Source: an uncultured Candidatus Saccharibacteria bacterium
Lineage (GTDB): Bacteria > Patescibacteriota > Minisyncoccia > Phycocordibacterales > UBA9973
Direction of reading: 5' to 3'
Length of the DNA: 64,000 nt
Assembly (NCBI GenBank): GCA_964469225.1
Contig: CAYXYC010000001.1
Coordinates: 27,556-91,555 of the forward strand
The notes below the pieces were generated by a model. The model did no database searches, was not told the origin of the DNA, and saw only the letters and a list, made by a program, of their open reading frames with translations. Numbering within the stretch: the stretch's first letter is position 1; each line of letters begins with the position of its first letter. The position numbers were made by a program, and so were the translations under genes. This document shows, piece by piece, positions 6,732 to 45,691 of the stretch.

Positions 6732-6739
6732 TATTTAGT

Positions 6740-9436: not shown

Positions 9437-9440
9437 AATT

Positions 9441-10940
9441 ATGGAACCACAACACAACAGTAGAAAACGAGCGATTACTATTACGATTATTGTCGTAGCA
9501 ATTCTTTTGCTTGTTGTTTATATTTTGTCTCAAACAACAACAATCTTTGGAACAAAGGGATCATCAACAAGTAATAAAAGTTTTATACCTCTTCTTGGAA
9601 CTTCAAAACAAAAAGCAGTAAACCCGATTGATCAAGGAGAAGAGGTAACCCTTCCAACAGGAACAGTCACGCAGACAACAGGTGGTGGTGAGCCAACAAA
9701 CAACCCGCTCCCAACACCAAATGGCAAAGGTCCATTTGTAGTACTCTCGGTTACACCCAAAACACTTCCAGTTGCTGGTGGCAAAATAAAGCTTACATGG
9801 CAAGGAGAAAATGTCATTTCTTGTATCCCAAGTTGGACAGGAAAGAAAATCACTCAAACAAGTGGCACCTCAAATGAAATCACAGTAAAGAAAACGCGTG
9901 TCTTTGGTATTTCGTGTGCAAACGGACAAGGACAGCAGGCAAGCGCAAGCACACAAGTTACTGTTGGAGAAAATGCCCTTCAGGTATCACTTCGTGCAAC
10001 ACCAAACACGCTCATTGAATCAGGAAATGTTGTTTTAACATGGACAAGCAAGAGCACAGTGAAATCTTGTACACCAGGATGGACAAACAAAAAAGATGCT
10101 GCTCAAGGAGAAGTAACTGTTCCTGTTAGTCAATCACAAACATTTCTAATTAGTTGTACAGATGGCGCTCTAACCGAAATTGCCGAAGCAGATGTTGTTG
10201 TTGGTTCATTTGAAAAAACCCCTCAGTGTCGAGATGGAGTTGATAATGATGGAGACAACGCCGTAGATGCACTAGATAGCGCGTGTCATAGCAATTTTGA
10301 TGCGAGTGACGACACAAGTTATGTTCCAACAATTGCCGACGAGGCGCGTCTTCCAACTGAAACAACAAATGCAGACAGGTGTAAGATTGTAGACGATAAT
10401 CCACTTACATTTACTGATGTTGAAAAACGACAACTTGATCTTCTGCTTCGTCAGTTCTATCGAATCGCGCCAAATCTAAAAACTGAAGATGATGTTGTTT
10501 TTGAAAAAGAAGCTCGTCTTGGATATATTGATCTTGTTAAAGAAGTAAAAAGTCTAACAAAACAATGTTACGCACAACAATATCCAGCAGAAAACAACGC
10601 GGTTCGTGTCGCTCTCGGCGCAACACCGAACTACACAGGCCCTCTTGAAAAGAAAACTAATCCATATTTCCAGCCAGATGGAGTTGTAAGTTCACCATCA
10701 TACATCACAAAAAGTTATATCGAGTCCAAATTTACCGCCCAGCAGAACACAATGATCGCCCAACAAGCACTCGTCGTGTCGAAGCTTGACGCAAAAATTA
10801 AATCTGCACAAACCAACGCTCAGGCAATACTCTTTACACAGTTACGAAACTACGAACAGAACATTCTAGACCAGTTTAAAAACAACATATCAACGGCAAA
10901 TCAATTCATCTTGATAGAAAAACTTCTTCAGGTTTGGTAA
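9441..10940 (+). CDS. membrane-anchored surface protein with two tandem Ig-like repeats and a DxDxDG-type acidic motif
   Basis: N-terminal TM (ITITIIVVAILLLVVYIL). Internal ~100-aa repeats (...TWQGENVISCIPSWTGKK / ...TWTSKSTVKSCTPGWTNKK). CRDGVDNDGDNAVD motif. Confidence 0.5.
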   Translation: MEPQHNSRKRAITITIIVVAILLLVVYILSQTTTIFGTKGSSTSNKSFIPLLGTSKQKAVNPIDQGEEVTLPTGTVTQTTGGGEPTNNPLPTPNGKGPFVVLSVTPKTLPVAGGKIKLTWQGENVISCIPSWTGKKITQTSGTSNEITVKKTRVFGISCANGQGQQASASTQVTVGENALQVSLRATPNTLIESGNVVLTWTSKSTVKSCTPGWTNKKDAAQGEVTVPVSQSQTFLISCTDGALTEIAEADVVVGSFEKTPQCRDGVDNDGDNAVDALDSACHSNFDASDDTSYVPTIADEARLPTETTNADRCKIVDDNPLTFTDVEKRQLDLLLRQFYRIAPNLKTEDDVVFEKEARLGYIDLVKEVKSLTKQCYAQQYPAENNAVRVALGATPNYTGPLEKKTNPYFQPDGVVSSPSYITKSYIESKFTAQQNTMIAQQALVVSKLDAKIKSAQTNAQAILFTQLRNYEQNILDQFKNNISTANQFILIEKLLQVW

Positions 10941-10999
10941 TCTGTGATTTTTGAGGATAAAAAGGGGATTTCTTGTTTAAAAATTGATATACTATTAGT

Positions 11000-13363
11000 G
11001 TGAAGAAACTAACTTCAACGATTATCTTCGTATCTATACTTGCGAGTACATTCTGCGCTCCTTTTTTTGGTAATGGATTTTCTCATTTTCAAATACCTCG
11101 TGCCGAAGCAATAAATGAAGCCAATTCTACTTATGGACTAAGTCAAGAATCTAAAGATGTTTTAAAAGAAGGAGAGGAAGCAAAAAAAGCAACCGCCCCT
11201 GATACCGACCCTGAAATGCTTCCAGCCTGTGGGTTTGATGCTGGGGTGGTACAAGTTGGGAATAGCAACGGAACATTTGTTGGTTGTATTGCTCAGGCAT
11301 TCTATTATGTGCTTTTTGTACCAACATCATATATCTTTGCTCTTTCTGGAATGTTTTTTGATTTCACTTTTGCATATTCTATTGATGATGGATCATACAA
11401 AACACCATTCATTACCCAAGGCTGGGCGCTAATTCGTGATATGGTCAACATGTTCTTTATCTTCGTGCTTCTCTTTGTTGCATTCAAAACAATTCTCAAT
11501 GTTGCGCATGGAAAAACAAAAGAACTTGTAATGAATGTTGTTATCATTGGAATATTGATTAATTTCAGTCTCTTTGCCGCACAAGTGATTGTTGATACAT
11601 CAAATATTCTAGCGCGAGTATTCTACAACGATGACGCAATCAAAATAACTAAGGGTGGTGAGAGGGGTGGTAGCGCACTTTATGACAAAGGAGCAAATGG
11701 TGAAGTGCAACTCTCGGCAGCACTGGTAAATAAAATTAATCCTCAAAACCTTATTAGTCAGGCAAGTAAAGTGAATGACATGTCGACAGTAGGAAACGCG
11801 GATTCTGCCTCTGACCTATCGTCAGACGGAGTACGAACACTAACTGCTGGTACATTTATTCTTGTTACAATTCTTGCTTCAATTGTTAATATTGTTGGAA
11901 TATTCACATTTCTTTCGGTTGGACTTATTTTTGTGGCACGAGTTATAGGGCTCTGGTTTGCAATGATTCTTGCACCGCTTGCATTCTTCACATATACCGT
12001 TCCGTCACTTCAAAATGAAAAGATTTTTGGGTGGAAAAGTTGGTGGTCTGATCTTTTCAGGCTGTCATTCCTGGCACCAATTTTTATATTCTTTATGTAT
12101 CTCATCCTTCGTTTCCTTGAAAGTGGAATGAATTTCATTGGTCTTGATAATCTCACTGGGGCTGAGTGGGTAATCGCGATTATCATTCCTTTTATTTTTA
12201 TAATGATAATGCTCCTTCAAGCAAAAAATATTGCAAAGGATTACGCAGGAACTATTGGTCAGACAATTACGAATTATGTTGCGGCAGCGGGAGGGTTTGC
12301 GCTTGCTGTTGGTACAGGCGGGGCAGCAATGATTGGACGAGGTATGGGGGGCATGGCGGCGCGCGCATCAGCAGGAGAGACACTCACACAACGATTTGCT
12401 GACCCAACCAAAAGGGGAACAATGAAATGGTATCAGAAGGCTGCGGGTTGGTCAGGAAACAAGCTTGGTATGAATAAGGTGTTTGGAAAGACCGTAGTTG
12501 GCGGTAGAGCAACAACCGGCGTTGGTGGAATCCTAAATAGGTCACAAGAAAAAGTTAACAAAGTTGATCACGCAAGACACACAGTAGATGAAGCCAAAGA
12601 AAAGGCTGGACTTAAAGATGTTGCATGGTCACGACTATCTGCAATACAACGGGAAAAAGTTCTTACTGAGTTTAAGAAAACAAATAAAGATAAACTCACA
12701 ACGGTGGCAGAGGAAAAAATAAAAAGTGGCTTAGCGTTCGATACCAGTGGTAACCCAATTCAAGGCTTCAGTGACTACAAGGCAGATAGACACTTAGACG
12801 AAGAACAAGCATACAGAGTGGCCAAGGGTATTACAGGAATGACACCACTAACAGCACCACAACAGGATGAATTAAACAAAAGAAAACTTGCGCTTGATAA
12901 AAAAATTAATAGCGACTACGAGAATACCATACTTAAACCAAATATTAATTTACAAGTATCAGTAGAAGCAGAAAAAGAATTTGAACACGAAAAAGAAGAA
13001 TCCAACAAACAAGTTTCCGGATTCACCCGCGCGACATCTCAGGCAAACACTGGTAGTTGGAATGTTAGCAATCTTTCACAACTTAAACAAGATAAAAGAG
13101 AAGGTGTATTTACCAAGGCCGCAACAGTAAGCACAGCACTTTTGAGTGGGCAATTACGCAATGCAATTGGAGCAATTGGCTTTAAATATGGAAAAGGAGC
13201 AACCGGTGAAGAAAAATACACCAACCAAAGCAAATTTATTGATGATTTGAAAAACGGTATTGCTGAAGCATTCAAAACAGCCAACATTAATGTAACAGTT
13301 AACACCGGCGGTAGTGGAGGAGAAAAGAAAAAAGATGATCACGGTGGCGGAGGGCATCACTAA
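11000..13363 (+). CDS. VirB6/TrbL-like polytopic membrane protein with long hydrophilic C-terminal extension (T4SS-like channel component candidate)
   Basis: Signal-like N-terminus, then at least 6 strongly hydrophobic helices (about 100-420 aa), then a ~350-aa K/E-rich tail ending GGSGGEKKKDDHGGGGHH. Its position upstream of VirB3/VirB4-like genes mirrors Tn916 orf15-17. Confidence 0.45.
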   Translation: MKKLTSTIIFVSILASTFCAPFFGNGFSHFQIPRAEAINEANSTYGLSQESKDVLKEGEEAKKATAPDTDPEMLPACGFDAGVVQVGNSNGTFVGCIAQAFYYVLFVPTSYIFALSGMFFDFTFAYSIDDGSYKTPFITQGWALIRDMVNMFFIFVLLFVAFKTILNVAHGKTKELVMNVVIIGILINFSLFAAQVIVDTSNILARVFYNDDAIKITKGGERGGSALYDKGANGEVQLSAALVNKINPQNLISQASKVNDMSTVGNADSASDLSSDGVRTLTAGTFILVTILASIVNIVGIFTFLSVGLIFVARVIGLWFAMILAPLAFFTYTVPSLQNEKIFGWKSWWSDLFRLSFLAPIFIFFMYLILRFLESGMNFIGLDNLTGAEWVIAIIIPFIFIMIMLLQAKNIAKDYAGTIGQTITNYVAAAGGFALAVGTGGAAMIGRGMGGMAARASAGETLTQRFADPTKRGTMKWYQKAAGWSGNKLGMNKVFGKTVVGGRATTGVGGILNRSQEKVNKVDHARHTVDEAKEKAGLKDVAWSRLSAIQREKVLTEFKKTNKDKLTTVAEEKIKSGLAFDTSGNPIQGFSDYKADRHLDEEQAYRVAKGITGMTPLTAPQQDELNKRKLALDKKINSDYENTILKPNINLQVSVEAEKEFEHEKEESNKQVSGFTRATSQANTGSWNVSNLSQLKQDKREGVFTKAATVSTALLSGQLRNAIGAIGFKYGKGATGEEKYTNQSKFIDDLKNGIAEAFKTANINVTVNTGGSGGEKKKDDHGGGGHH

Positions 13364-13384
13364 TTAAATAATTTATTAACATGA

Positions 13385-13664
13385 ATCCCGTTAGAGATTA
13401 TTCATGTTCTATTACACTTACATTTTAAAAAGCAAAAAAGATGGTAGGATATACACTGGATATACAAAAGATTTACGGAAGCGCCTAACACAACACAACG
13501 AAGGTTTATCTACACATACAAAAAACAGGGGTCCATTTATTATTATTTATTACGAAGCATGTATGTCAGAAGAAAAAGCACGGTCGAGAGAATTATATTT
13601 AAAATCTGGTATGGGCAAGCGTTATTTAAAAAATAGATTAGGCGCTTCCTATCTCTAACGGGAT
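13385..13664. repeat. 14-bp perfect inverted repeat pair flanking the GIY-YIG ORF
   Basis: atcccgttagagat (13385-13398) and atctctaacgggat (13651-13664). Confidence 0.7.
13404..13658 (+). CDS. GIY-YIG nuclease family small protein
   Basis: YYTYILKSKKDGRIYTGYTKDLRKRLTQHN matches the GIY-x10-YIG plus R...H/N core; 84 aa. Confidence 0.7.
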   Translation: MFYYTYILKSKKDGRIYTGYTKDLRKRLTQHNEGLSTHTKNRGPFIIIYYEACMSEEKARSRELYLKSGMGKRYLKNRLGASYL

Positions 13665-14721
13665 GAATCAAGAACAACTACAAAAATTAATCGTTGAAAT
13701 GCACAGCAAGCTCTCACCAAGGGCGCAAGAAGTTTTTTCGTCAATGGTGTGGGCTGATACTCTATCTCTGATTGAGAAAAAATATGCGCTCAATGAAACA
13801 CAAATCAGGACACTTGGAACAGAAACAACCCTTGCACTCTTGGGTGTTATTGGAATTGATGAATATGAGAAAGAGGTTGCTCGCGCCCTTGCTCACCCTG
13901 ATGAAATTACAAAAAAGATTCTTGCTGAAATTCGCGAACGAATTTTCTCGGGAATCGTGCAAGACCTAGCCGATGCGCATAGCAAAAACAAAGACAAACA
14001 AATATCAATCGAAGGATACACAGACCCGAGGTTTGCTGGCTTGCCACCGCTACTTCTAAAAGCAATTTCAGAATCAGGGTATCAGAAAAAACTCTACGAA
14101 CTTGGCACAAAACACAAACTTGCAATTGATACAATGGCAGGACTTGAAGATCTGACGATTCAATTTATGAAAGGGGAGATAGAACCAGCACAATACGAAA
14201 AAGAACTTGTTGCCTCACTCGGAATCAAACCAGATGCAAGTAAAGAAATAGCAAATGATATCAATACAACCATTCTTTTGCCAATTCGCGAACTCATGAA
14301 AAAAGAAGAACAGAAAGCGGTAACAACACCCGATATCCCATTCCCGCCATACCGCCCAACAATTAATGCAACACTCCCAAAGACACAATCAGGAATTCTC
14401 GCTACGGCTGGAATCGAAATGATCCATGACGACTACACACAAAACGACAGAAGTGTTCCAACAACAAAAAACGAAGATGGAGTGCTCACACAAGCAGGTA
14501 TTTCGGTTATTGATGAGAAACGCTCTTTAAACGAAGAACATATTCTACCAAGCCCAAGTAATCGCAATCGCGCGCTTGAAGGAATTGAACACCCGGCAAA
14601 AACAATGACCTCAATTCATGAGGAAAAACTCCAAAAAACAACCACAAGTACACCACAAACAAGTGATTACTCCCTACCTAAAATAGGTGGTGGTGATATA
14701 TACCGAGAACCAATCGGATAA
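13663..14721 (+). CDS. hypothetical acidic protein
   Basis: 352-aa ORF with no recognised motifs; its start codon lies inside the right inverted-repeat arm flanking the GIY-YIG ORF. Confidence 0.45.
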   Translation: MNQEQLQKLIVEMHSKLSPRAQEVFSSMVWADTLSLIEKKYALNETQIRTLGTETTLALLGVIGIDEYEKEVARALAHPDEITKKILAEIRERIFSGIVQDLADAHSKNKDKQISIEGYTDPRFAGLPPLLLKAISESGYQKKLYELGTKHKLAIDTMAGLEDLTIQFMKGEIEPAQYEKELVASLGIKPDASKEIANDINTTILLPIRELMKKEEQKAVTTPDIPFPPYRPTINATLPKTQSGILATAGIEMIHDDYTQNDRSVPTTKNEDGVLTQAGISVIDEKRSLNEEHILPSPSNRNRALEGIEHPAKTMTSIHEEKLQKTTTSTPQTSDYSLPKIGGGDIYREPIG

Positions 14722-14743
14722 TCTCGTGATAGAATAAAGATAT

Positions 14744-15178
14744 ATGCAATTTAAGGTTCCACAATTCATTGATATTGAGGATACATTGTTTGGGCCATTT
14801 ACCTTTCGTCAATTCGCCTACCTTGTTGGTGGAGGAGGAATGATTTTTGTATTGTATAAATTGTTACCTTTTTGGATTGCCATTTTCTTTATTCTTCCAA
14901 TCGGAATTTTGACTGGACTTTTAACTTTTTACAAAATCAACAACAAGCCTTTTATTTATTACCTCCAAGCGGGTATTAGTTATGCGCTCACTAGTAAACT
15001 CTATGTCTGGAAACAGCGTCTCGTAAAACCAACACAGAAAAAAGAAGAGGGGAAACCGATTGCCGAGACACCCACTGTTCCAGTCCTCTCATCAAGCAAG
15101 TTGTCTGACTTGGCATGGGGTCTTGATATGCCGACAGAAGAAACGCAAGCAACCGAAAATCAAAAACCATTAAGGTAA
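14744..15178 (+). CDS. VirB3/PrgI-like small membrane protein (two TM helices)
   Basis: 144 aa with two hydrophobic helices (GGGGMIFVLYKLLPFWIAIFFILPIGILTGLL), immediately upstream of the VirB4-like ATPase, as in Gram-positive T4SS (Tn916 orf17 / PrgI). Confidence 0.5.
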   Translation: MQFKVPQFIDIEDTLFGPFTFRQFAYLVGGGGMIFVLYKLLPFWIAIFFILPIGILTGLLTFYKINNKPFIYYLQAGISYALTSKLYVWKQRLVKPTQKKEEGKPIAETPTVPVLSSSKLSDLAWGLDMPTEETQATENQKPLR

Positions 15179-15199
15179 TGTGATATAATAATTTTATAT

Positions 15200-15838
15200 A
15201 TGGCACTCGACGCTCGCGCTGCGCAAGAATTCGTTCCAATTAAAGAAGTTCGTGATGGCATCATTATTCTCAAAGATGGTGGTCTTCGAGCGATTCTAAT
15301 CGCATCATCAATAAACTTATCGCTCAAATCATCTGACGAACAAATTGCCATCATTAATCAATTTCAAAATTTTTTGAATGGACTTGATTTTCCAACACAG
15401 ATTGTTATGCAGTCACGACGACTTGATATCCGACCATATCTCCTGATGCTTGAAAATCGTATCAAAGAACAAACAGAGCAACTCATTAAAATCCAAACCC
15501 GAGAATATATTAATTTCATCCGATCGTTCACTGATGAGGTAAACATCATGACCAAAACATTTTTCGTTGTTGTACCTTACACACCCGCAATCTTAAAATC
15601 AGGCGGTATTATTGAAAATATAATCGGCGGACGATCTAGTTCAGAAAACAAAAAGCAGGGAGATACAGCGGATTTTGAAGAAAAAAGATCACAACTTGAT
15701 CAGCGAGTGAGTGTTATTATGGGAGGATTGGGTAGTCTTGGTATTCGCAGTTCACAACTCAAAACAGAAGAAGTCGTTGAACTCTTCTATAAAACATTCA
15801 ACCCAGGAGATATTAGTCAGGGTATTCAATTAGAATAA
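15200..15838 (+). CDS. VirB4/TraE-like ATPase, N-terminal domain (separate ORF)
   Basis: EFVPIKEVRDGIIILKDGGLRAILIASSINLSLKSSDEQIAIINQF resembles the conserved N-terminus of Gram-positive VirB4 proteins (Tn916 Orf16 / TcpF / PrgJ), recalled from memory. Stop TAA lies 1 nt before the ATG of the next ORF. Confidence 0.5.
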   Translation: MALDARAAQEFVPIKEVRDGIIILKDGGLRAILIASSINLSLKSSDEQIAIINQFQNFLNGLDFPTQIVMQSRRLDIRPYLLMLENRIKEQTEQLIKIQTREYINFIRSFTDEVNIMTKTFFVVVPYTPAILKSGGIIENIIGGRSSSENKKQGDTADFEEKRSQLDQRVSVIMGGLGSLGIRSSQLKTEEVVELFYKTFNPGDISQGIQLE

Positions 15839-15839
15839 T

Positions 15840-17687
15840 ATGTCATTTCTATCATCACTATTTGGCAAAAAAGATTCATCTGGAACCACTTCAAAAGAAG
15901 GGCCTGTTGTAATGCCTGTTCTTCCAACAGAAATTTATCGCGCCGCAACACTTGAACTACAAGACATTATTGCACCATCAGCACTTCAAATTACTCCAAA
16001 GTCTCTAAATCTCGGAGACAAAATTACCAGAACATTCTTTGTTATTTCATATCCGCGATTTTTGACTGATAACTGGTTCTCTCCAATTATCAACCTAGAC
16101 AAAGTGTTTGATGTTTCTATTGCTATCCATCCGATTGAAACAGCAGAAATATTACGATCATTCCAGAAAAAAGTTGCTGAGGTGCAAAGTCAGATTTCTA
16201 TTCGTGAATCCAAAGGTCTCGTTCGCGACCCAATGCTTGATACTGCATATCGTGATCTTGAAAATCTTCGTGATAGTCTGATGCAAGCACAAGAAAAAAT
16301 GTTTAATGTTGGTTTATATATCACCGTTTATGCTGAAAGTGAGACTGATTTGTTCAAAATTGAAAGTGAGATCAAATCTCTCCTTGAATCAAAACTTATT
16401 TATTTGAAACCAGCGCTCTTTCAGCAGGCAGAAGCATTTAAAAGCGTTATCCCACTTGGTACAGATATTTTGGGTATTCACCAAAAGCTTAATACCGAAC
16501 CTCTTTCAAGTCTATTTCCATTTGTATCTTTTGATTTAACATCAGATAAGGGAATTCTTTATGGTGTAAATCGTCACAATTCAAGTCTTATTATTTTTGA
16601 CCGATTTTCACTACCAAACTATAACTCTATTACCTTTGCCACATCTGGTGCTGGTAAATCATACGCAACAAAACTAGAAGTTATCCGAACACTTATGTTT
16701 GATACCGAAGTCATTGTTATTGACCCGGAGCGCGAATACGAATATCTAGCCGAAGCGATGGGTGGACGATATTTCAATATTGCTCTTTCTTCTGATCACC
16801 ACATCAACCCGTTTGATTTACCAATTCCGAGCACCGATGAAACACCCGCCGATGTTTTGCGCGCAAACACAATTAACCTTGTTGGATTATTCCGTATAAT
16901 GCTCGGCGGACTAACGCCAGAAGAAGATTCAATCATTGACCGTGCCATCACAGAAACATATGCGATGAAGGACATCACCGCTGATTCAAATTTTGCTAAT
17001 ATTGAACCGCCACTTTTGACTGATTTTGAAATGGTGCTTGCTGGTATGGAAGGAAGTGAATCAGTTATCCAACGCCTCGCAAAATACACTCGTGGATCAT
17101 GGTCATCGTTCCTTAATCAACCATCAAATGTAGACATAAATAGAAAATTTGTTGTCTTTTCGGTTCGTGACATGGAAGATGAGTTGAAACCAGTCGCAAT
17201 GTATATCGTTACTCACTATATATGGAACGCTGTTCGTAAAAATATCAAAAAACGCCTTCTTGTTGTTGACGAGGCATGGTGGATGATGAAATCAGAAGAC
17301 ACAGCGTCTTTCCTGTATTCAATTGCAAAACGCGGACGAAAATACTATCTTGGGCTTGCGACAATTACCCAAGATGTTGGTGACTTTATGAAAAGTCCAT
17401 ACGGTGTGCCTATCGTAACAAACTCGTCACTTCAACTTCTGCTAAAACAATCCCCATCAACAGTTGATGTTCTCCAAAAAACCTTTAATTTAACAGATGA
17501 AGAAAAATACCTGCTTCTTGAAGCTAATGTCGGGGAGGGAATATTCTTTGCTGGACTAAAGCATGTTGCAGTTAAAACCATTGCATCGTATACCGAAGAC
17601 CAGATTATCACTTCTGACCCATCACAAATCCTTGCAATCAAAAAAGCCCGCGAAGAATTAATCAGTAGTGGACAAAAACCGCTCTAA
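15840..17687 (+). CDS. VirB4/TrbE/CagE-family T4SS ATPase, C-terminal ATPase portion
   Basis: Walker A FATSGAGKSYATK; Walker B / DEAW motif LLVVDEAWWMM; 615 aa. Confidence 0.75.
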   Translation: MSFLSSLFGKKDSSGTTSKEGPVVMPVLPTEIYRAATLELQDIIAPSALQITPKSLNLGDKITRTFFVISYPRFLTDNWFSPIINLDKVFDVSIAIHPIETAEILRSFQKKVAEVQSQISIRESKGLVRDPMLDTAYRDLENLRDSLMQAQEKMFNVGLYITVYAESETDLFKIESEIKSLLESKLIYLKPALFQQAEAFKSVIPLGTDILGIHQKLNTEPLSSLFPFVSFDLTSDKGILYGVNRHNSSLIIFDRFSLPNYNSITFATSGAGKSYATKLEVIRTLMFDTEVIVIDPEREYEYLAEAMGGRYFNIALSSDHHINPFDLPIPSTDETPADVLRANTINLVGLFRIMLGGLTPEEDSIIDRAITETYAMKDITADSNFANIEPPLLTDFEMVLAGMEGSESVIQRLAKYTRGSWSSFLNQPSNVDINRKFVVFSVRDMEDELKPVAMYIVTHYIWNAVRKNIKKRLLVVDEAWWMMKSEDTASFLYSIAKRGRKYYLGLATITQDVGDFMKSPYGVPIVTNSSLQLLLKQSPSTVDVLQKTFNLTDEEKYLLLEANVGEGIFFAGLKHVAVKTIASYTEDQIITSDPSQILAIKKAREELISSGQKPL

Positions 17688-17726
17688 TCCATTGTTTAGG
17701 GTTCGGGAATAGCATATAATAAAAGG

Positions 17727-18695
17727 GTGATTCGTATTTCTCGAACATTATTAATATGTACTATGCTTGCCATCTTTGGCGGAGTAGTGCATTTTTCTTC
17801 GGCAGCAATTGATATTGGAGGAGACGATATTGTAGTAACCGTTTCGCCACAATCTCCTCATGGATACCAAGACACAACAATTACACTTTCGAGCTATGCG
17901 ACAAACTTGAGCCTCGCTTCTATTGAGTGGAAAAAAGATGGGACACCGGTTCTGTCTGGTTTTGGAAAAACAACATATTCATTCAAAACAGGCGCGAGCG
18001 GTACCCCAATTCGTGTCACTATTACAATTGCTCTTTCAGAAGGAATCCAACTTTCAAAAGAAATTCTTATAACACCATCTGATCTCGATATTTTCTGGGA
18101 AGCACGCGATAGTTACACTCCACCATTTTATAAAGGCAAGGCTCTTCCATCATCAGAAGCAGTAATTAAAGTTGTTGCAATTCCAGCCCAAACAAAAAGC
18201 ACATTATCATATTCTTGGAAACAAAATTCATCATCAATTCCTCAATCAAGCGGATACAAGAAAAACACCCTCCTTGTTGTGAATGATATTTTACAATCAG
18301 CTGAAACCGTTTCTGTTGATGTAGCAAGTTCTGATGGCGCGTATGGAGCATCAGCAAATGTTGTTATTCCAATTGTAAGTCCAGACCTTGAGTTTTACAA
18401 AAAAACAGCAGACCAGGGAATCCTCTATGCGCAAGTGCTTGGTAGTGAAACAACACTTGAAGGGGATGATTTAAGTATTGTAGCTGAACCGTATTTTCTA
18501 AATCTTTATGATAAGAAAATGGCTTATAATTATCAATGGAAAATTAATGATCAAGATATCACAACACCCGTAGAACGAAATGAATTAACTATTCAACCGA
18601 ATTCACGCGGGGGGTATACATTGGTTGGGCTTTTGGTTGAAGAATCTAATTCATTATTTCAAAAAATCAGTCGCGTGCTTCGTGTAAATTTTTAA
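17727..18695 (+). CDS. secreted beta-rich repeat protein
   Basis: Signal-like N-terminus (LLICTMLAIFGGVVHFSSAA); internal ~100-aa repeats. Confidence 0.45.
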   Translation: MIRISRTLLICTMLAIFGGVVHFSSAAIDIGGDDIVVTVSPQSPHGYQDTTITLSSYATNLSLASIEWKKDGTPVLSGFGKTTYSFKTGASGTPIRVTITIALSEGIQLSKEILITPSDLDIFWEARDSYTPPFYKGKALPSSEAVIKVVAIPAQTKSTLSYSWKQNSSSIPQSSGYKKNTLLVVNDILQSAETVSVDVASSDGAYGASANVVIPIVSPDLEFYKKTADQGILYAQVLGSETTLEGDDLSIVAEPYFLNLYDKKMAYNYQWKINDQDITTPVERNELTIQPNSRGGYTLVGLLVEESNSLFQKISRVLRVNF

Positions 18696-18696
18696 T

Positions 18697-20112
18697 ATGA
18701 AATATATTTTTTCTTTATTTATTTTATCAATCTTTGTAACCCCTTTTGCGGGAATTGTTTCGCAAGCCGAATCTGCTAACGATTGCAAGGTTCTTTCAGC
18801 AGAATGGAGTCAATCAGGAGATATGCCTAGTGGGTGGTTTAAGGAAGAACGAACCCCGATTAACATAATAACCAAAACACAAGGATGTGTTGGACAAGAA
18901 CTTAATTTGAGTATTTTTGAGGGAGATACATGTGGGATTGAGTGTGACGATGACCTTGTTGGCTTTTACCGTAGACCAATTCTTGTGCCAACAGACAATT
19001 TCTCGGTAAGAATTGGTCTTGGGGAAGACGAATGTGAAGCTGGTGCAACTGCTTCTATTGGGTATGATTGCCATTTGTTTTTCTATTGGCGAAACAATGC
19101 GATGGATCTTCTTTATAATTCATGGCACAAGGTAAGTGGTGATCTTTTTTATGAGTGTGATGGCCTTTGTGATACTGATCCAATACTTGTTTCTATTATT
19201 CCAAACGGAAACACAACAACACGGGTTAGTGTTGATCCTAATAAATCAACGGGTGTTCACAAAGAAGTTTATAATCTTCTAGCGCCTATTGGAGACCTGA
19301 GGTGTATTGATGATGGATCAGGAACACCTGGTACAAACTGCGTGAAGGGTGGCGCTGGGGTATATTTAAATACAATTTTCAAAATTGCTATTGGGCTTGC
19401 AGCAGCACTTGCTGTTGTTATGATTGTTATTAATTCTGTTTCATATATGGGAGATGAATCAGTTTTTGGTAGAACAGAAGCAAAGAGCAAAATTCTCTCT
19501 GCTATTGGCGGACTACTACTTGCACTTGGCGCATATGCATTACTAAACACTATTAATCCAGCGCTGACAGGCGTAGGTGGGGTACAAATTGACCAAGTGG
19601 TTGCTGAGGTGGATGAAGACCCTATTCTTGAAGATAGCCCAAATCTTGTTCTCCAAACTGGAGCAATTGCTCGTTGCCCTGACGGAATATCAAAAACCAT
19701 TACAAAGGGCGGAACATTCTATGTTTGTAATTCTCTTGTTGGGCGATTTAAAACGATGATAGAAGACGCCTGGTCACAAGGAATTAAAATCTCTGGTGGA
19801 GGATTCCGAACCAAAGAGGCGCAAATTGCCCTTCGAACAAAAAACTGTGGTGGATCAGGAAATGTATATAATTCAAACGCAAAATGTACTCCCGTAACAG
19901 CCGTTCCTGGTACATCAATGCACGAGAGCGGAATGGCTTTTGATTTTAAGTGTGACGGAAAACTTATTAATATTGGTACTGGTCGAAAAAATAAGTTCGC
20001 AATTAATGCAAGCACAAAAAAATGTTTTGACTGGCTGTCGTCGAATGCCGGAAAATACGGACTAAAAAATCTGCCAAGTGAAAATTGGCACTGGTCAACT
20101 AACGGTAAATAA
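18697..20112 (+). CDS. secreted Cys-rich protein with internal two-helix membrane hairpin and C-terminal peptidase M15 (VanY/DD-carboxypeptidase-like) domain
   Basis: Signal peptide, about 20 Cys in the N-domain, two adjacent hydrophobic helices (IAIGLAAALAVVMIVINSV / AIGGLLLALGAYALLNTI). C-terminal motifs GGFRTKEAQ and SMHESGMAFD (SxHxxGxAxD), ENWHW. Confidence 0.6.
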   Translation: MKYIFSLFILSIFVTPFAGIVSQAESANDCKVLSAEWSQSGDMPSGWFKEERTPINIITKTQGCVGQELNLSIFEGDTCGIECDDDLVGFYRRPILVPTDNFSVRIGLGEDECEAGATASIGYDCHLFFYWRNNAMDLLYNSWHKVSGDLFYECDGLCDTDPILVSIIPNGNTTTRVSVDPNKSTGVHKEVYNLLAPIGDLRCIDDGSGTPGTNCVKGGAGVYLNTIFKIAIGLAAALAVVMIVINSVSYMGDESVFGRTEAKSKILSAIGGLLLALGAYALLNTINPALTGVGGVQIDQVVAEVDEDPILEDSPNLVLQTGAIARCPDGISKTITKGGTFYVCNSLVGRFKTMIEDAWSQGIKISGGGFRTKEAQIALRTKNCGGSGNVYNSNAKCTPVTAVPGTSMHESGMAFDFKCDGKLINIGTGRKNKFAINASTKKCFDWLSSNAGKYGLKNLPSENWHWSTNGK

Positions 20113-20115
20113 TTT

Positions 20116-21393
20116 ATGCCACGAAAAACAATAATTATTTTCATATCGGTCTTTCTGGTCATTGGTGGAGGAATTTTTATCTACTCTCGTTTTGTTTCAA
20201 CGCCAACACAAAACACAAACACCACACAAAATGGAGACTATAGACCATTTGGATCTACGACAGAAAACGGATCAGGGAGTATCTCTGGAGTTATTTCTCA
20301 AACCATCAACACAATTTTGGGTGGGGTAGGACTTTCGTCTGACGCAAATCGTTTCCAAAAAATAACAGATTTTCCTATTGCTGGAGTGACATTCTTTATT
20401 GATACTCGAAAGGTTGAGCAGTCACAACAAGCAACAAACCCCGACGGAACAGCAACACAGACAGCAGGTGATGCCCAGTTTGTTTCTGTGCCATCACTCC
20501 GCTTTGTTAATCGAATCACCGGACATCTTCACCAGATGTATTTAGACACAAAAATATCAGGCGTTGTTTCAAACTCAACAATTCCTTCTATCCATGAGGC
20601 ACTATTTGCAAACAACGGTAAAACTGTTTTTTATAGATACCTTGATACTGACAACAAAACAATAAACACCTTCACTGCAACACTTGGTGCAAATCGTGGT
20701 GAATTTATGCCAGATAATATTCTTAATATGAGTGTGTCATCCGATGGTCAGAAAGTATTTTATATTACAAAAGATGCAAATGGTGTTCGTGGTGCAATTA
20801 AAAACATCACAACAGCTAAAAAATCAGATATTTGGTCATCACCGCTCTCTGAGTGGACTTCAAAATGGGGGAAGGGAGAAACGGTCTATCTAACAACAAA
20901 ACCTTCCCAGCTTGCAAATGGAGGACTCTGGAGTCTCAACACCATAACAGGCGCAACAACAAAAATATTAACGGGAATACCTGGTCTTACAACACTCACG
21001 AGTCCTGATGGGAACAGTGTGCTATATAGTATCTCAACAACAAATGGACCTCGCCTTGGCATCTATTCAATCAAAAAAAATGAATCCACCGATCTTTCAA
21101 TATATGGACTACCAGAGAAGTGTATTTGGACAAAATCATCTCTATCTATTTATTGTGCTTCACCAACTGGAATACAAAGTGGTTTGTATCCAGATGATTG
21201 GTATAAAGGAGTAACATCATTTGCTGACCGATTTATTCGCATCAATATTGATACAAATACAATTGATACTGTTTCTGAGGGACCAGAAACTGAAATAGTT
21301 GATGGAACAAATCTAATTCTAAACGACACAGAAAAAATACTTTTCTTCACAAACAAAAAAGACTCCGCACTATGGAGCCTCTCTCTTGAATAA
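20116..21393 (+). CDS. membrane-anchored hypothetical protein, possible beta-propeller ectodomain
   Basis: N-terminal TM (IIIFISVFLVIGGGIFIY), then a T/N-rich linker and repetitive beta-rich sequence. Confidence 0.4.
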   Translation: MPRKTIIIFISVFLVIGGGIFIYSRFVSTPTQNTNTTQNGDYRPFGSTTENGSGSISGVISQTINTILGGVGLSSDANRFQKITDFPIAGVTFFIDTRKVEQSQQATNPDGTATQTAGDAQFVSVPSLRFVNRITGHLHQMYLDTKISGVVSNSTIPSIHEALFANNGKTVFYRYLDTDNKTINTFTATLGANRGEFMPDNILNMSVSSDGQKVFYITKDANGVRGAIKNITTAKKSDIWSSPLSEWTSKWGKGETVYLTTKPSQLANGGLWSLNTITGATTKILTGIPGLTTLTSPDGNSVLYSISTTNGPRLGIYSIKKNESTDLSIYGLPEKCIWTKSSLSIYCASPTGIQSGLYPDDWYKGVTSFADRFIRINIDTNTIDTVSEGPETEIVDGTNLILNDTEKILFFTNKKDSALWSLSLE

Positions 21394-21401
21394 TATCTCT
21401 A

Positions 21402-21866
21402 TTATTCAGAAATATATTTGATAACAACCTTGCGGTTAGGACCGTACCCTGTTGATTCGGTTTTAATATCTTTGGCGTTTTCAAGGAAAAGGTGAATGAT
21501 TCGTCGTTCGTGCGCTGGCATTGGGTCAATTTCTATATTGCTCTTAAAATAACGGGCTCGTTCAGCCATCATGTGCGCCATCGCTTTCAAACTATCAAAC
21601 TGTTTCTTTTGATATCCATTTACATCAACAGTAAAACGATTGGTTATCATGTCACCTTCAGGTAGATCTTTTTCAAGAATTTTACGGACGATATGATTAA
21701 GAGACCGAAGTGTCTCCCCATCACGACCAATCATAAACCGAGAATCGGGTGTTGAAACCGCGCACCAAAGCATTCCGTTTTCATCAGAAAAATCAAATCC
21801 CGAAATCTCACAGCCGGTGTGAAAAAATATGTCTTCTATAATTTTCTTGATTTTATCTTGGTTCAT
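21402..21866 (-). CDS. jag: Jag/KhpB-like RNA-binding protein (KH + R3H domains)
   Basis: GRDGETLRSLNHIV (KH GxxG) and PMPAHERRIIHLFL (R3H); sits downstream of yidC as in the canonical rnpA-yidD-yidC-jag operon. Confidence 0.75.
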   Translation of the reverse strand: MNQDKIKKIIEDIFFHTGCEISGFDFSDENGMLWCAVSTPDSRFMIGRDGETLRSLNHIVRKILEKDLPEGDMITNRFTVDVNGYQKKQFDSLKAMAHMMAERARYFKSNIEIDPMPAHERRIIHLFLENAKDIKTESTGYGPNRKVVIKYISE

Positions 21867-21872
21867 ATATAT

Positions 21873-22601
21873 CTACGCAAGTGTCTTGCGAACACGCCAC
21901 TCTTGGATGATTGTAAATATATTACTTGTAATCCAATAAAGCGCAATGGCTGCTGAAATTTGGTATGCAATAAAAGCAACAAAAACAGGAAGCACATAGC
22001 GAATATTCATTTGCATACTTTCTGCTAATTGTTCTTGGAATGTTTTTGGTTGAGCGGCAGTTTGTTCTGTAACAATATCAACCTTCTTCTGTGCAAGTGG
22101 GGAAGAAAGTTTTCCTTGTATAAACTGAGAAACTCCGGCCAGAAGCGCAAGAACAATACTTTTACCATGCAAATCAATGCCGAGGAAAAAGGCGTTTAGT
22201 TGCTCTGGTTTGGTAATAAACGAATAGAGCGGTGTCGCATCAAAAGAAAGACCCTTATAAAATACATAATAAAGGGCGAAAATTACTGGTAATTGAAGAA
22301 TAATTACCAAGCAACCAGAAAAAGGGTTTACATTGTATTTTTTATATAATTCAAAGGTTTTTCGTGCTTGTTCTTCTTTATTAGGGAAATCTTTCTTTAT
22401 AGCCTTTAATTCTGGCTCAATGCGTTTTGTGAGAATCTGGCTTCGGATTGATTTCTTTGTAAGAGGGGAAAGAATGGTCTTAACAAGAATTGTTAAAATA
22501 ACAATCCCTAAACCAATATTTCCAGCCGTTATTGTGCTAACAATAAAAATGAGCGTATTGTATATCGGCTCATATAAAAAAGTATTCCATAGTGATGACA
22601 T
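21873..22601 (-). CDS. yidC: membrane protein insertase YidC (short form)
   Basis: Multi-TM 242-aa protein in conserved operon position between yidD and jag. Confidence 0.75.
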   Translation of the reverse strand: MSSLWNTFLYEPIYNTLIFIVSTITAGNIGLGIVILTILVKTILSPLTKKSIRSQILTKRIEPELKAIKKDFPNKEEQARKTFELYKKYNVNPFSGCLVIILQLPVIFALYYVFYKGLSFDATPLYSFITKPEQLNAFFLGIDLHGKSIVLALLAGVSQFIQGKLSSPLAQKKVDIVTEQTAAQPKTFQEQLAESMQMNIRYVLPVFVAFIAYQISAAIALYWITSNIFTIIQEWRVRKTLA

Positions 22602-22670
22602 CTCTCTATTGTATAGGAAAAGAAGCCATCATAAAAGGTTGATTTATTTAAAAGTCGTTGTTTGCCCTTT

Positions 22671-22877
22671 TTAAATTAGGGGATCGTAACGGTTTTTCTG
22701 CCAAGGATGACACCTGGCAATTCTTTTACACCCAAGCCAAAAGCCCATTAAAAATCCATATTTTTCAATGGCATTTTTTGTATATTCGGAGCATCTTGGA
22801 ATAAAAACACAAGATGAGTGGCTCTGTGCGGGGGTTGATTGGTAAAGAGATATGAGGAATATGGCTAGTTTTTTCAT
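22671..22877 (-). CDS. yidD: membrane protein insertion efficiency factor YidD
   Basis: 68 aa with conserved CRFIPRCSEY...CHPW cysteine motif. Confidence 0.8.
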   Translation of the reverse strand: MKKLAIFLISLYQSTPAQSHSSCVFIPRCSEYTKNAIEKYGFLMGFWLGCKRIARCHPWQKNRYDPLI

Positions 22878-22878
22878 T

Positions 22879-23196
22879 TTAATATCTCACCTTACGCAAA
22901 AGTGCATCCATGTCGTTTTTTATATCTTGGGTTGTGGCTTTTGATGCCTCGTTTTTAAAGAAGAAAATCGCCGTAATTGGTGGCAGACTTAGTGTTCTAA
23001 GGACATTATATCCTTTTCTTCTAAGGCTATTTCGCTTAACAGCCCTTTTTTCAACGCCTTTTGGGACAACACAAGCATACCTTGGTCCGCCGTAAGCCAT
23101 AAATCGCAACGAAAAAAGCGGGGAAGAGATTACTTTCCCGTCTTTCATAAGAGAAAGGAATACATCCTTCGTTACCCGCTTTTTCTTTGGAATCAT
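22879..23196 (-). CDS. rnpA: RNase P protein component RnpA
   Basis: RNR-type motif AVKRNSLRRKGY; ATG at 23196 (MIPKKKR). The ORF-track GTG start at 23247 would overlap the rpmH 3' end. Confidence 0.75.
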   Translation of the reverse strand: MIPKKKRVTKDVFLSLMKDGKVISSPLFSLRFMAYGGPRYACVVPKGVEKRAVKRNSLRRKGYNVLRTLSLPPITAIFFFKNEASKATTQDIKNDMDALLRKVRY

Positions 23197-23209
23197 TGAA
23201 TTATAAGGC

Positions 23210-23350
23210 TTATTTTGCGATTGAGACCTTTTTTCGGCCCTTAGCACGGCGACGAGCTGTTACCTTTTTGCCGCCAGGAGTTTTTGCGCGAGAAAGAAAA
23301 CCGTGGGTTTTCGCTCTTTTTCGCTTGTTTGGGTTGTATGTTATAGACAT
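23210..23350 (-). CDS. rpmH: 50S ribosomal protein L34
   Basis: Hand translation of the minus strand gives [46 protein letters not shown] (46 aa); not in the ORF track because it is under 60 aa. Confidence 0.9.
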
Positions 23351-23481
23351 ATTAGGAAATATATAACAAAATCAGTCATTATGCAATGTTTTGTTTCGTA
23401 TGTTACTATCCACACATTATTAACAGGTTAATCCAGATATTGAATAAATCCCTGTTTTCAAATGAGAGTATACTAGAATGT

Positions 23482-24828
23482 ATGAATACAAAAGAATTAT
23501 GGAACAGCTGTCTTTCTGATATTGAACTTGGTATTTCAAAAGCCAATTTTACAACATGGTTCAAAAATACTCTGATTGTAAAAGAAGACGCTGGAACAAT
23601 TTATGTTGGTGTACCAAATGAGTTTGTAAAAGATTGGCTTTACAATAAATTCCATAAATTAATTTTGAAAACCCTTATGGGCTACGAAGAGAGTGTTAGG
23701 AGTGTTGAATATATTATTCACAAGCACGAGGCTGGTACGCGACCATCATACAACGAACCTGTAAAAAATATAATAAACAAAGAACTTCCACTTAACGACC
23801 TTTATACCAACAAAGAAGATAATTTGAATCCTAAATATACATTTGATTCCTTTATTGTTGGGCCATTTAATGAACTCGCCTATGCTGTTTCGCAGGCAAT
23901 TATTTCAAATCCAGGGCATGGATATAATCCATTCTTTGTTTATGGGGGAACGGGCTTAGGTAAAACGCACATGATTCAAGCAATCGGAAATGCTATAAAA
24001 AAGAATTACCCCGATAAAAAAATCTATTATGTAAGTCTTGAAAAATTCACTATTGATTATGTGAACTCAATTCAAAGTAAAAACCCAAACTCATTCAAAG
24101 AAAAATACAGAAAATATGATGTCATCATAATGGATGATATCCAATTTATTACAGGAAAAGACCGAACCCAAGAAGAGTTATTTCATTTGTTTAATATCTT
24201 TTATGAAAATAATAAACAAATTATATTTTCATCTGATAAACACCCTAATTTTATTCAAGGACTTGAAGAGAGGCTCCAGTCTCGCTTTGCATCTGGTATG
24301 ACGGTTCAAATAACAGAACCAGATTATGAGTCACGAATTGCAATTATTAAAGCAAAATTTGAATCAACAAATTGTATTATTGAGCGAGAAGTTGTGGAAT
24401 ATCTTGCTGAAGCCCTAGAAGGGAACATTCGAGAACTCGAAGGAAGCCTAAACACAGTTGTAATGCAATCACAATTAAAAAATAAAGCCTTGTCTCTTAA
24501 TGAAGTAAAAACCCTTATAAAAAACAACATAAAACCAAAGAAAACAGTTGCAATAAAAGACATTGTTCAGTGTATTGCTGAATATTACAATATTTCTGAA
24601 TCAATAATTTACGAAAAAACAAGACGAAAAGAAATTGTTAGAGCGCGACAGGTTGCGATGTATTTATTGCGTGAAGATTTTAATATTTCCTATCCTTTAA
24701 TTGGACAAAAAATGGGAGGAAGAGATCACACAACTGTTATTCACTCACATTTAAAAATAAAAGATGATATAAAAACAGACCCGTCGTTATTACAAGAAAT
24801 AGAAAAAATTCGCATTTTATTTAAGTAG
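23482..24828 (+). CDS. dnaA: chromosomal replication initiator DnaA
   Basis: AAA+ Walker A GGTGLGKTHMIQAIGN; C-terminal DNA-binding domain (RDHTTVIHSHLKI). Start chosen at MNTKELWNS; the ORF track extends 32 codons further upstream to 23386. Confidence 0.9.
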   Translation: MNTKELWNSCLSDIELGISKANFTTWFKNTLIVKEDAGTIYVGVPNEFVKDWLYNKFHKLILKTLMGYEESVRSVEYIIHKHEAGTRPSYNEPVKNIINKELPLNDLYTNKEDNLNPKYTFDSFIVGPFNELAYAVSQAIISNPGHGYNPFFVYGGTGLGKTHMIQAIGNAIKKNYPDKKIYYVSLEKFTIDYVNSIQSKNPNSFKEKYRKYDVIIMDDIQFITGKDRTQEELFHLFNIFYENNKQIIFSSDKHPNFIQGLEERLQSRFASGMTVQITEPDYESRIAIIKAKFESTNCIIEREVVEYLAEALEGNIRELEGSLNTVVMQSQLKNKALSLNEVKTLIKNNIKPKKTVAIKDIVQCIAEYYNISESIIYEKTRRKEIVRARQVAMYLLREDFNISYPLIGQKMGGRDHTTVIHSHLKIKDDIKTDPSLLQEIEKIRILFK

Positions 24829-25043
24829 TGAATAAGGTGTGGAAAACAGTGTTAATTAAAAATTATAATTTGTGGGTAAAAAAACTTTCTACCCATAAAT
24901 AAAAGTTACCAACAAAAAAGTTATTACAAGCACAACAGGAAATGTAATAAATAATCTTATTTTTAAATCTTATTTTTTGAATCCACACAATCCACACCAT
25001 TAATAGTAGTAATAATGTATTTATATAAATAATACCCACATAT
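24829..25043. promoter_or_regulatory. putative oriC: AT-rich dnaA-dnaN spacer with five DnaA-box-like 9-mers
   Basis: tgtgggtaa (rc TTACCCACA), tacccata, two aatccacac, tacccacat, plus very AT-rich stretches. A further CTATCCACA box upstream of dnaA at 23406-23414. Confidence 0.6.
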
Positions 25044-32345: not shown

Positions 32346-32373
32346 TGCCGCACTGCTAAACAGTGCGGTTTTT
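32346..32373 (+). terminator. intrinsic terminator for the plus strand
   Basis: ccgcactg-ctaaa-cagtgcgg followed by TTTTTT. Confidence 0.65.
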
Positions 32374-45572: not shown

Positions 45573-45619
45573 TGTGTTGCGAAATGGGTTTGCATAGTGT
45601 AGATTGTGTTGGTGTAATT

Positions 45620-45691
45620 GGTCCCGTCGTTCAATGGATAGGACGTAACTTTGCGGAAGTTATGATGCAGGTTCGATTCCTGCCGGGATCA
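45620..45691 (+). tRNA. tRNA-Arg (anticodon GCG as read)
   Basis: GGTCCCG acceptor / GTTC D-stem / TAACT-TTGCGGA-AGTTA anticodon arm (G37) / GCAGG-TTCGATT-CCTGC T-arm / CGGGATC-A. Its 3' 15 nt are repeated 4.1 kb downstream. Confidence 0.7.

Follow-up and report, generated by a model that had tools for sequence, protein, structure and literature searches.

What kind of machine is encoded by the run of co-directional genes that ends just beside dnaA in this stretch of DNA, and what might it do for its bearer? The stretch is a 64-kb window of one genome (contig CAYXYC010000001.1, deposited as an uncultured Candidatus Saccharibacteria bacterium), on which this work rests and whose positions serve as coordinates throughout. 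An original prediction, made from the DNA letters, had described here a monoderm-type, chromosomal gene set resembling a type IV secretion system (T4SS), positioned beside dnaA and typical of ultrasmall episymbionts. Our results support the view, with a probability of roughly 0.85, that the locus is the Paceibacteria version of the T4SS of the Patescibacteria clade, i.e., a vertically inherited chromosomal machine that came from monoderm conjugation systems of the mating-pair formation (MPF) class FATA and is without their DNA-processing half (relaxase and coupling protein).

The array occupies positions 5838-21393 of the plus strand. Every substantial open reading frame (ORF) between ksgA (4472-5362) and 21393 lies on this strand, with intergenic gaps of 1-59 nt, and the array ends 8 bp (21394-21401) before jag-yidC-yidD-rnpA-rpmH, beyond which come dnaA and dnaN. 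All ORFs named in the original prediction are indeed present on the plus strand with these short gaps. The flank that it placed after the cluster was also correct, with the distance being 8 rather than 10 bp, and its gene order stood except that two ORFs, encoding a GIY-YIG protein and a 352-aa protein, had been left out between the 787-aa gene and prgI. The features are as follows.

5368-5835, plus strand: 155-aa ORF between ksgA and the 297-aa gene.
5838-6731, plus strand: 297-aa membrane protein without family assignment; first conserved array gene after ksgA.
6740-9436, plus strand: 898-aa protein with a signal-peptide-like N-terminus, without family assignment.
9441-10940, plus strand: 499-aa protein, variable between loci, with a tandem repeat and a single hydrophobic segment at the N-terminus.
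11000-13363, plus strand: 787-aa polytopic protein, candidate channel of the "extended VirB6" kind; GTG start.
13404-13658, plus strand: 84-aa ORF with a GIY-YIG nuclease domain; sporadic insertion.
13663-14721, plus strand: 352-aa protein without hydrophobic segments or family assignment, in the slot between the VirB6-like gene and prgI.
14744-15178, plus strand: 144-aa PrgI/VirB3-like membrane protein with two helices (Pfam PF12666).
15200-15838, plus strand: 212-aa TrsD-like ORF, equivalent to the VirB4 N-domain (NCBIfam TrsD/TraD, NF041427).
15840-17687, plus strand: 615-aa VirB4 ATPase of the MPF-FATA, CD1110 type (NCBIfam NF045971).
17727-18695, plus strand: 322-aa protein with an N-terminal hydrophobic segment, without family assignment, immediately 3' of virB4.
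18697-20112, plus strand: 471-aa fusion of a pilin hairpin and a VanY domain (VanY, PF18895).
20116-21393, plus strand: 425-aa protein with one N-terminal hydrophobic segment; final array gene.
21402-26141: flank of the presumed replication origin with jag, yidC, yidD, rnpA and rpmH on the minus strand, then dnaA and dnaN on the plus strand (Pfam R3H, 60KD_IMP, Ribonuclease_P and Bac_DnaA; rpmH and yidD as ORFs).

Family assignment of the motor and its membrane partner carries much of this reading. The ORF at 15840-17687 scored 375.7 bits against NCBIfam NF045971 (VirB4-like, CD1110 family; cut-off 325) over profile positions 183-732, and it also matched Pfam P-loop_TraG (E = 3.6e-25). Its translation contains a Walker A-like motif, SGAGKS, and a Walker B motif, LLVVDE, at aa 473-478. 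The 212-aa ORF in front of it matched NF041427 (E = 9e-7) as well as the N-termini of VirB4 models, namely positions 105-233 of NF045975 (VirB4_plasma) and 2-111 of NF045971, and, judged from these matches, the 212-aa and 615-aa ORFs together would be one VirB4. The original prediction had drawn a single VirB4 gene across 15200-17687; the ATPase stands, and the single gene does not, as a TAA stop at 15836-15838 is followed one base on by an ATG in another frame. Because the TrsD-like and VirB4 ORFs were separate in 78 of the 78 relatives in which both were seen, this split is a conserved feature and neither an error nor a pseudogene.

The 144-aa protein had been called VirB3/PrgI-like, and a profile search bore this out, as it scored 34.5 bits against PF12666 (PrgI; gathering score 27, E = 3.1e-8). 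It has two hydrophobic segments, and its gene was found in 75 of 80 related loci. Models of other T4SS classes stayed below their thresholds: TcpE gave 24.4 bits with the 144-aa protein (gathering score 29.9), while TcpF, CedB and CedD gave 15.9, 29.7 (E = 2.6e-7) and 14.3 bits with VirB4 (cut-offs 1100, 700 and 600, respectively). As TcpF, TcpE and CedB are all sub-threshold, the kinship is with the PrgI/PrgJ/CD1110 systems (MPF-FATA), and not with Tn916/pCW3 (MPF-FA) or with DNA-import systems. The locus thus has a VirB4 of the monoderm MPF-FATA type, a separate TrsD-like ORF adjacent to it and a PrgI/VirB3 gene near virB4; neither the MPF-FA set (a TcpF/Orf16-type VirB4 with TcpE and TcpH homologues) nor a Ced or ComB import ATPase with its partners was found. 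The resemblance to PrgH-I-J that had been proposed is therefore apt, and that to Tn916 orf15-17 less so. Together with the enzyme described below, these assignments show that the locus has VirB4 as its motor, a membrane partner of the VirB3 type and a peptidase of peptidoglycan whose active-site signature is intact.

A one-genome-per-species scan with VirB4 yielded 594 confirmed relatives, the best 80 of which were kept as species representatives. These 80 are metagenome-assembled genomes with a VirB4 76-91% identical to that of the window, labelled mostly as Paceibacteria, Nomurabacteria, Parcubacteria and related Patescibacteria, and otherwise as "bacterium" or "uncultured bacterium". When all window proteins were searched by tblastn, gene order proved to be common to these species: uvrD-ksgA-297-898-(499)-787-352-PrgI-TrsD-VirB4-322-471-425, then jag-yidC-rnpA and dnaA-dnaN. 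Among loci with enough downstream sequence, 49 of 56 kept yidC and dnaA there, and the 787- and 898-aa genes were kept upstream in 44 of the 49 loci with enough sequence on that side. These two genes, together with the homologues of the 297-aa gene, show that the conserved module starts at about 5838, some 5 kb upstream of position 11000, where the cluster had been thought to begin. Median identities were 79% for VirB4 (a value somewhat favoured, since the loci were picked by VirB4 similarity), 64% for DnaA, 63% for TrsD, 54% for DnaN and 48% for PrgI, and they were 28-41% for the signal-like and anchor proteins. Such a pattern would fit an indispensable motor with faster-diverging surface parts.

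Many of the closest relatives (L001, L008, L010-L012 and others) carry the title "uncultured Candidatus Saccharibacteria bacterium" in third-party annotation (TPA) assemblies. Yet their VirB4 is >85% identical to that of genomes that go under Paceibacteria or Nomurabacteria, with which they are also fully syntenic, so that these titles look like mislabels.

The locus is chromosomal and lies beside dnaA, as had been predicted; the further statement that it is at the origin is one that we infer solely from the rpmH/dnaA-dnaN gene order. DnaA-box 9-mers were not enriched in the window, GC skew over the window was not decisive for the origin position, and GC content was 0.38-0.40 across the cluster and flanks alike. 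A promoter and terminator scan of the locus performed no better than with shuffled sequence. Taken at its longest, the dnaA ORF runs from 23386 and carries an odd extension of 32 aa that is rich in Cys (MFCFVCYYPH...). Pfam DnaA_N matches from aa 37 onward, and the ATG at ~23482 (MNTKELW...) is the more likely start, which would lengthen the rpmH-dnaA spacer. Two DnaA-box-like 9-mers, each with one mismatch, are located at 24838 and 24871 in the AT-rich dnaA-dnaN spacer.

Pfam scans of the cluster, its flanks and 20 ORFs downstream of dnaN (the ten largest included) revealed neither a relaxase nor a VirD4, and those 20 ORFs gave no VirB11 either, in agreement with the original prediction for the window. 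Neither a tRNA, an integrase, a relaxase nor a type IV coupling protein (T4CP) adjoins the cluster, and no relaxase or coupling protein was seen in the other window ORFs scanned. A conjugation module, i.e., a relaxase, a VirD4/TcpA-type coupling protein and a location on a mobile element, was accordingly not seen among the scanned ORFs of the window, and the relaxase-less cluster has the chromosomal context of dnaA, dnaN, rnpA, rpmH and ksgA. Type IV pilus genes are present in the window apart from the T4SS cluster, namely a PilB-type T2SSE ATPase with an MshEN domain (32373-34073) and PilM (56444-57523); this ATPase belongs to type IV pili and is not a VirB11. Type IV pili are the other machine essential for epibiosis in Saccharibacteria.

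The candidate for the membrane channel is the 787-aa protein, which the original prediction had called VirB6-like with a long tail. One hydrophobic segment at its N-terminus is followed by seven more and then by a helical, hydrophilic C-terminal domain of ~340 aa. Its polytopic core, with at least five helices, has a VirB6-like fold, and its best natural fold matches were T4SS channel proteins, which would place it, at the level of predicted fold, with the "extended VirB6" architecture described in PMC12857230, without membership of the TrbL/VirB6 sequence family. No sequence match to a VirB6, TrbL, PrgH or TcpH profile was obtained: a Pfam TrbL-type match was absent for the protein and for 44 of 44 family members (for eight of them even at E ≤ 10); a profile search of the family against PDB sequences gave no VirB6 link; a tblastn search of 72,556 plasmids with the membrane core returned nothing; and hhalign gave a probability of 2.2% with pCW3 TcpH and of 1.5% with a 37-sequence TrwI/VirB6 alignment built from R388 (NC_028464), though the latter was collinear. 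Foldseek against the PDB was negative, and the precomputed PF19590 tags on some homologues could not be reproduced by hmmscan. The polytopic core, the tail and the likeness in fold thus stand, and a likeness in sequence to VirB6, TrbL or TcpH does not.

In comparison with TrwI/VirB6 of R388 (PDB 7o3v), the 787-aa protein has double the length, and its C-terminus is a conserved Gly/His stretch (...HGGGGHH). This tail (...D-H-G-G-G-G-H-H-COOH, window 13300-13363) is kept in most of the 44 aligned homologues, and it may bind metal. We know of no described equivalent in VirB6 proteins.

Next to the motor and channel genes lies the 471-aa ORF, for which a secreted M15 peptidase had been proposed. 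The signal-like N-terminus and the VanY/M15 domain (aa 345-466) were found as expected, while an internal VirB2-like pilin hairpin (aa ~190-290), preceded by a variable Cys-rich N-domain, had been overlooked. The VanY domain matched with E = 4e-9, and its zinc-site motifs, SxHxxGxAxD and ExxH, are intact. Hydrophobic segments lie at aa 227-245 and 266-284, and a weak PF18895 (T4SS_pilin) match covers aa 224-284. Among 41 syntenic homologues, 37 matched PF18895 (best E = 9e-10) and four also matched TrbC/VirB2, so that, on family-level matches, a VirB2-like pilin (PF18895/PF04956) is present near virB4. If the signal peptide is cleaved, both domains flanking the hairpin would lie outside the cell in the predicted topology.

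When the 41 homologues were aligned, the hairpin region proved to be the sole conserved block (Y192, L195, P197 ... YLN ... G272 ... NTINP), with both sides varying by genome. Their C-terminal domains included VanY (8), M15_4 (3), YkuD (5), NlpC/P60 (5), Amidase_5 (2) and lytic transglycosylase (SLT) types (3). A hidden Markov model (HMM) of the hairpin found exactly one such ORF in the window, the 471-aa ORF, which is the only pilin-domain ORF there; over 70 related loci it found one ORF in 66 and two in the other four, most with a C-terminal extension of 150-280 aa. Against 1.84 billion cluster representatives, the hairpin gave 7,572 matches with E ≤ 1e-3, and the best 150 are, with few exceptions, proteins of 300-600 aa with the hairpin internal. 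Of 106 matches scanned, 75 matched PF18895, and the enzyme domains in these 106 were VanY (35), SLT (15, plus two SLT_2), Amidase_2 (5), NlpC/P60 (5), YkuD (4) and M23, M15_4 and M15 (1 each). The catalytic head is thus swapped among at least seven enzyme families (VanY/M15, SLT, Amidase_2, NlpC/P60, YkuD, M23 and M15_4 were seen in that position), even where VirB4 is ~90% identical: in four of the five closest relatives by VirB4 identity (89-91%), the C-terminal region had no BLASTP similarity to that of the window. When the C-terminal regions were clustered by single linkage, 44 of 69, the window's included, were chained into one cluster, and only the non-matches were used. A conserved Y-x-x-L-A-P motif precedes the hairpin; that it is a processing site is speculative.

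How does the locus compare with systems already described? Wang et al. 2023 (PMC10633639) used Tn-seq to show that an "apparent T4SS" of Southlakia epibionticum, SEML1_0006-0019, is essential for epibiotic growth; its pilins are among the essential parts, and neither a relaxase nor a coupling protein could be recognised in it. Its order is SEML1_0013 (TrbL/VirB6-like by structure), 0012 (NTF2-like), 0011, 0010 (PrgI), 0009 and 0008 (DUF87/VirB4), with small PF18895 pilins starting at SEML1_0014; SEML1_0008-0011 and 0013-0017 were classed as essential and SEML1_0012 was not (PMC10633639). The window shares with Southlakia ML1 the core order of a VirB6-like gene, genes without assignment, PrgI, an ORF in the TrsD slot (293 aa in ML1) and a VirB4 (~612 aa in ML1), as well as peptidoglycan enzymes just 3' of virB4 (peptidase and lysozyme homologues in ML1) and a cluster at the chromosome start (by locus-tag number in ML1) that encodes neither a relaxase nor a coupling protein (PMC10633639). 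However, Southlakia has an NTF2-like (VirB8-like) protein and an array of about six PF18895 pilins that are small and free-standing, whereas the window has a single PF18895 domain inside the 471-aa peptidase-bearing protein and no VirB8-like protein was found in it.

A survey of 3,035 genomes (Quiñonero-Coronel et al. 2025, PMC12102498) places a monophyletic Patescibacteria VirB4 clade inside MPF-FATA and reports that TrsD is abundant beside VirB4, that PrgI, VirB6-like proteins and PF18895 pilins occur and that relaxases are rare. For Paceibacteria and Microgenomatia it notes proximity to dnaA, dnaN, rnpA, rpmH and ksgA, for which a gene-dosage effect was suggested. Set against the survey, the window likewise has a VirB4 of the MPF-FATA type, an adjoining TrsD-like ORF, PrgI/VirB3, a VirB6-like protein, PF18895, no nearby relaxase and the same neighbours, and nothing essential differs. 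The gene set described in the original prediction accordingly matches these two accounts, and the system, its missing relaxase and its proximity to dnaA are already published there (PMC12102498, PMC10633639); the present locus is a typical Paceibacteria example.

Its monoderm relatives differ in several respects. MPF-FATA systems such as pCF10 (PrgH-PrgI-PrgJ-PrgK), Clostridioides CTn2 (CD1110) and pGO1 (TrsC-TrsD-TrsE) sit on plasmids or integrative conjugative elements (ICEs) with a relaxase, an oriT and a VirD4-type coupling protein, and, to our knowledge, conjugative MPF-FATA systems have no VirB2-like pilins. The window shares with them the CD1110-model VirB4, the PrgI and TrsD homologues and a membrane-anchored cell-wall hydrolase next to VirB4, but it is chromosomal and syntenic, no DNA-processing genes were found in the 64 kb, and it has a VirB2-like hairpin.

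We envisage that the machine would work as follows: the VirB4 ATPase, for which the TrsD-like ORF would provide the N-domain in trans, would dock on the membrane via PrgI/VirB3, a step modelled on established VirB3-VirB4 knowledge, with supply in trans suggested by the conserved adjacency of the two ORFs; the 787-aa extended-VirB6-like protein, going by its fold, might form the membrane channel or platform; the 471-aa protein, judged from its domains and predicted topology, would hold its VirB2-like hairpin in the membrane and present its peptidoglycan peptidase outside, opening the cell wall locally; and the fast-evolving 297-, 898-, 499-, 322- and 425-aa proteins, whose N-termini are signal-like or single anchors, would probably make up or adorn the portion outside the cell that contacts the host. 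Conserved adjacency is what suggests that the 297-, 898-, 352-, 322- and 425-aa proteins belong to the machine. Most likely, by analogy with Southlakia epibionticum, whose epibiotic growth requires a cluster with this gene order, the role would be a contact-dependent exchange with the host cell rather than conjugation, either effector export or import of host molecules. A choice between host interaction and uptake, instead of conjugation, had also been favoured in the original prediction, and it is in line with published Patescibacteria T4SS and with the absence of a relaxase or coupling protein nearby. The function is not stated as known in the literature, with effector delivery and host-molecule uptake being the leading ideas (PMC12857230, PMC11665869).

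Four points weigh against this reading: the PF18895 match of the window's 471-aa protein, at 20.4 bits, is under the gathering score of 26.6; no Pfam or NCBIfam match to a VirB8-like (NTF2-fold) protein was obtained in the cluster, where the single-anchor 297-, 499-, 322- and 425-aa proteins would be the candidates; essentiality is known only for a Saccharimonadia species, so that the role in Paceibacteria would be an analogy; and a T4CP or relaxase may exist elsewhere in the genome, the scope here being 64 kb. With regard to the last, VirD4-like genes occur in most genomes, usually far from virB4, according to PMC12102498.

Might the system instead be a competence-like T4SS for DNA uptake, as with Helicobacter ComB or archaeal Ced, importing host DNA as a source of nucleotides for an organism unable to make them? 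The lack of any relaxase or T4CP found is compatible with import, VirB4 shows a weak similarity to CedB, and T4SS have been proposed as a candidate route of nucleotide acquisition (PMC11665869). However, a CedB score of 29.7 bits against a cut-off of 700 indicates generic P-loop similarity, no ComB- or Ced-specific component was found, and competence in Southlakia needs ComEC, the deletion of which abolishes competence with viability unaffected (PMC12857230). Hence the Southlakia T4SS is not essential through the known uptake route. We regard DNA uptake as rather unlikely, and it would be a sub-case of the host-exchange T4SS and not another machine.

A functional or decaying ICE that inserted by chance next to the origin would explain why VirB4, PrgI and TrsD are homologous to conjugation proteins of Gram-positive plasmids and ICEs, and why a selfish-type GIY-YIG gene lies inside the array. 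It would not explain the same order with the same neighbours (ksgA on one side, jag-yidC-rnpA-dnaA on the other) in dozens of species, a VirB4 more conserved than DnaA in the same genomes, or the lack of any integrase, relaxase, T4CP, flanking tRNA or composition shift found; the GIY-YIG gene itself occurs in only two of 80 relatives. We rejected this very improbable reading on the conserved chromosomal synteny. Least credible of all is a VirB4-like ATPase of an unrelated apparatus (phage DNA packaging or another HerA/FtsK-type translocase) among unrelated envelope genes, which would suit the 297-, 898-, 499-, 352-, 322- and 425-aa proteins without family assignment and the 787-aa protein without a sequence-level one, but which we rejected on family assignments: VirB4 scores above the curated threshold of a model specific to conjugation, its neighbours include PrgI, TrsD and a T4SS pilin domain, T4SS channel proteins head the natural fold matches of the 787-aa protein, and none of the eight cluster proteins scanned, i.e., all of those without family assignment, matched a PHROG.

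Within the preferred reading of a Patescibacteria-clade T4SS, the hairpin protein allows a further and tentative proposal, which we consider doubtful: the sole VirB2-like "pilin" of Paceibacteria T4SS loci might be no pilus subunit, but a membrane hairpin with a variable binding domain on its N-terminal side and an exchangeable head that cleaves peptidoglycan, forming a wall-breaching tip that determines host range, the T4SS counterpart of phage tail lysins. As the heads differ between genomes with ~90% identical VirB4, the head may match the cell wall of the host and not that of the bacterium itself.

The remaining array proteins are less easily placed. The 297-aa protein has hydrophobic segments at aa 10-28 and, more weakly, at aa 224-242; 35 of 80 loci have a homologue of it in the corresponding place (~28% identity), and it gave no Pfam or PHROG match. 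In the 898-aa protein, conserved Cys/Trp/Gly motifs and a helical C-terminal half were seen; its AlphaFold2 (AF2) model was of low confidence (pLDDT 58) with no fold match, and weak profile matches to influenza HA2 (E = 0.004-0.1) were discarded as non-specific, the region being predicted as long helices. A hydrophobic segment (aa 11-29) and a tandem duplication of two ~80-aa Cys-containing modules (z = 13.5) characterise the 499-aa protein, which weakly matches an acidic double-disulfide repeat and has a homologue in only 10 of 80 loci. It is here that the clear repeat lies: the 322-aa protein after VirB4, which had been called repeat-rich, has weak internal repeats (z = 0.9-3.4). Present in 77 of 80 loci at ~32% identity, the latter has invariant Trp, Pro and Gly columns and only a weak Ig_3 match. 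The last gene was correctly predicted to encode a membrane-anchored protein; this 425-aa product has one hydrophobic segment (aa 5-23), occurs in 66 of 80 loci and shows a beta-propeller-like signal through a weak PQQ_2 match (E = 1.7e-3, below the cut-off). Neither the 322-aa nor the 425-aa family gave a meaningful match among PDB sequences. The 352-aa protein, having no hydrophobic segment, is probably cytoplasmic; 43 of 80 loci have its gene in the corresponding place, and no Pfam family was common to 36 members. As for the 84-aa GIY-YIG ORF (Pfam E = 1.4e-18), its occurrence in only two of 80 related loci, in one at a different cluster position, marks this stand-alone gene as an occasional insertion and no component of the system, and suggests a mobile selfish gene.

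Elsewhere in the window, a tRNA-Arg gene (45619-45694, plus strand) overlaps the 3' end of a large serine recombinase gene (45660-47246, minus strand), which is followed by several ORFs without Pfam matches (47645-52000); this region may be an integrated element or prophage.

What, then, does the locus add? Few machines have been shown to be essential for an epibiotic lifestyle, and the Patescibacteria T4SS is among them on the evidence from Southlakia; the window provides a well-conserved reference layout for Paceibacteria, with 11-12 conserved genes, rather than a new kind of system. This layout offers a split TrsD/VirB4, an extended VirB6-like protein recognised by fold only, six conserved proteins without family assignment and a hairpin/enzyme fusion with a swapped head. 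In the passages of PMC12102498 that were consulted, a pilin hairpin and a cell-wall enzyme are not described as one polypeptide, nor are the conserved 297-, 898-, 352-, 322- and 425-aa proteins, and in the main texts of PMC10633639, PMC12102498, PMC12857230 and PMC11665869 we found neither a hairpin-enzyme protein with a swappable head nor a list of the conserved partners. The residual novelty would therefore lie in the pilin-hairpin/hydrolase fusion and in these partners; that a pilin hairpin carries interchangeable cell-wall-enzyme domains is a small new point, an underdescribed detail of the system. If it is true that the swapping tracks host cell-wall chemistry, the hosts of uncultured Paceibacteria would become predictable, and penetration of the host envelope would become directly testable.

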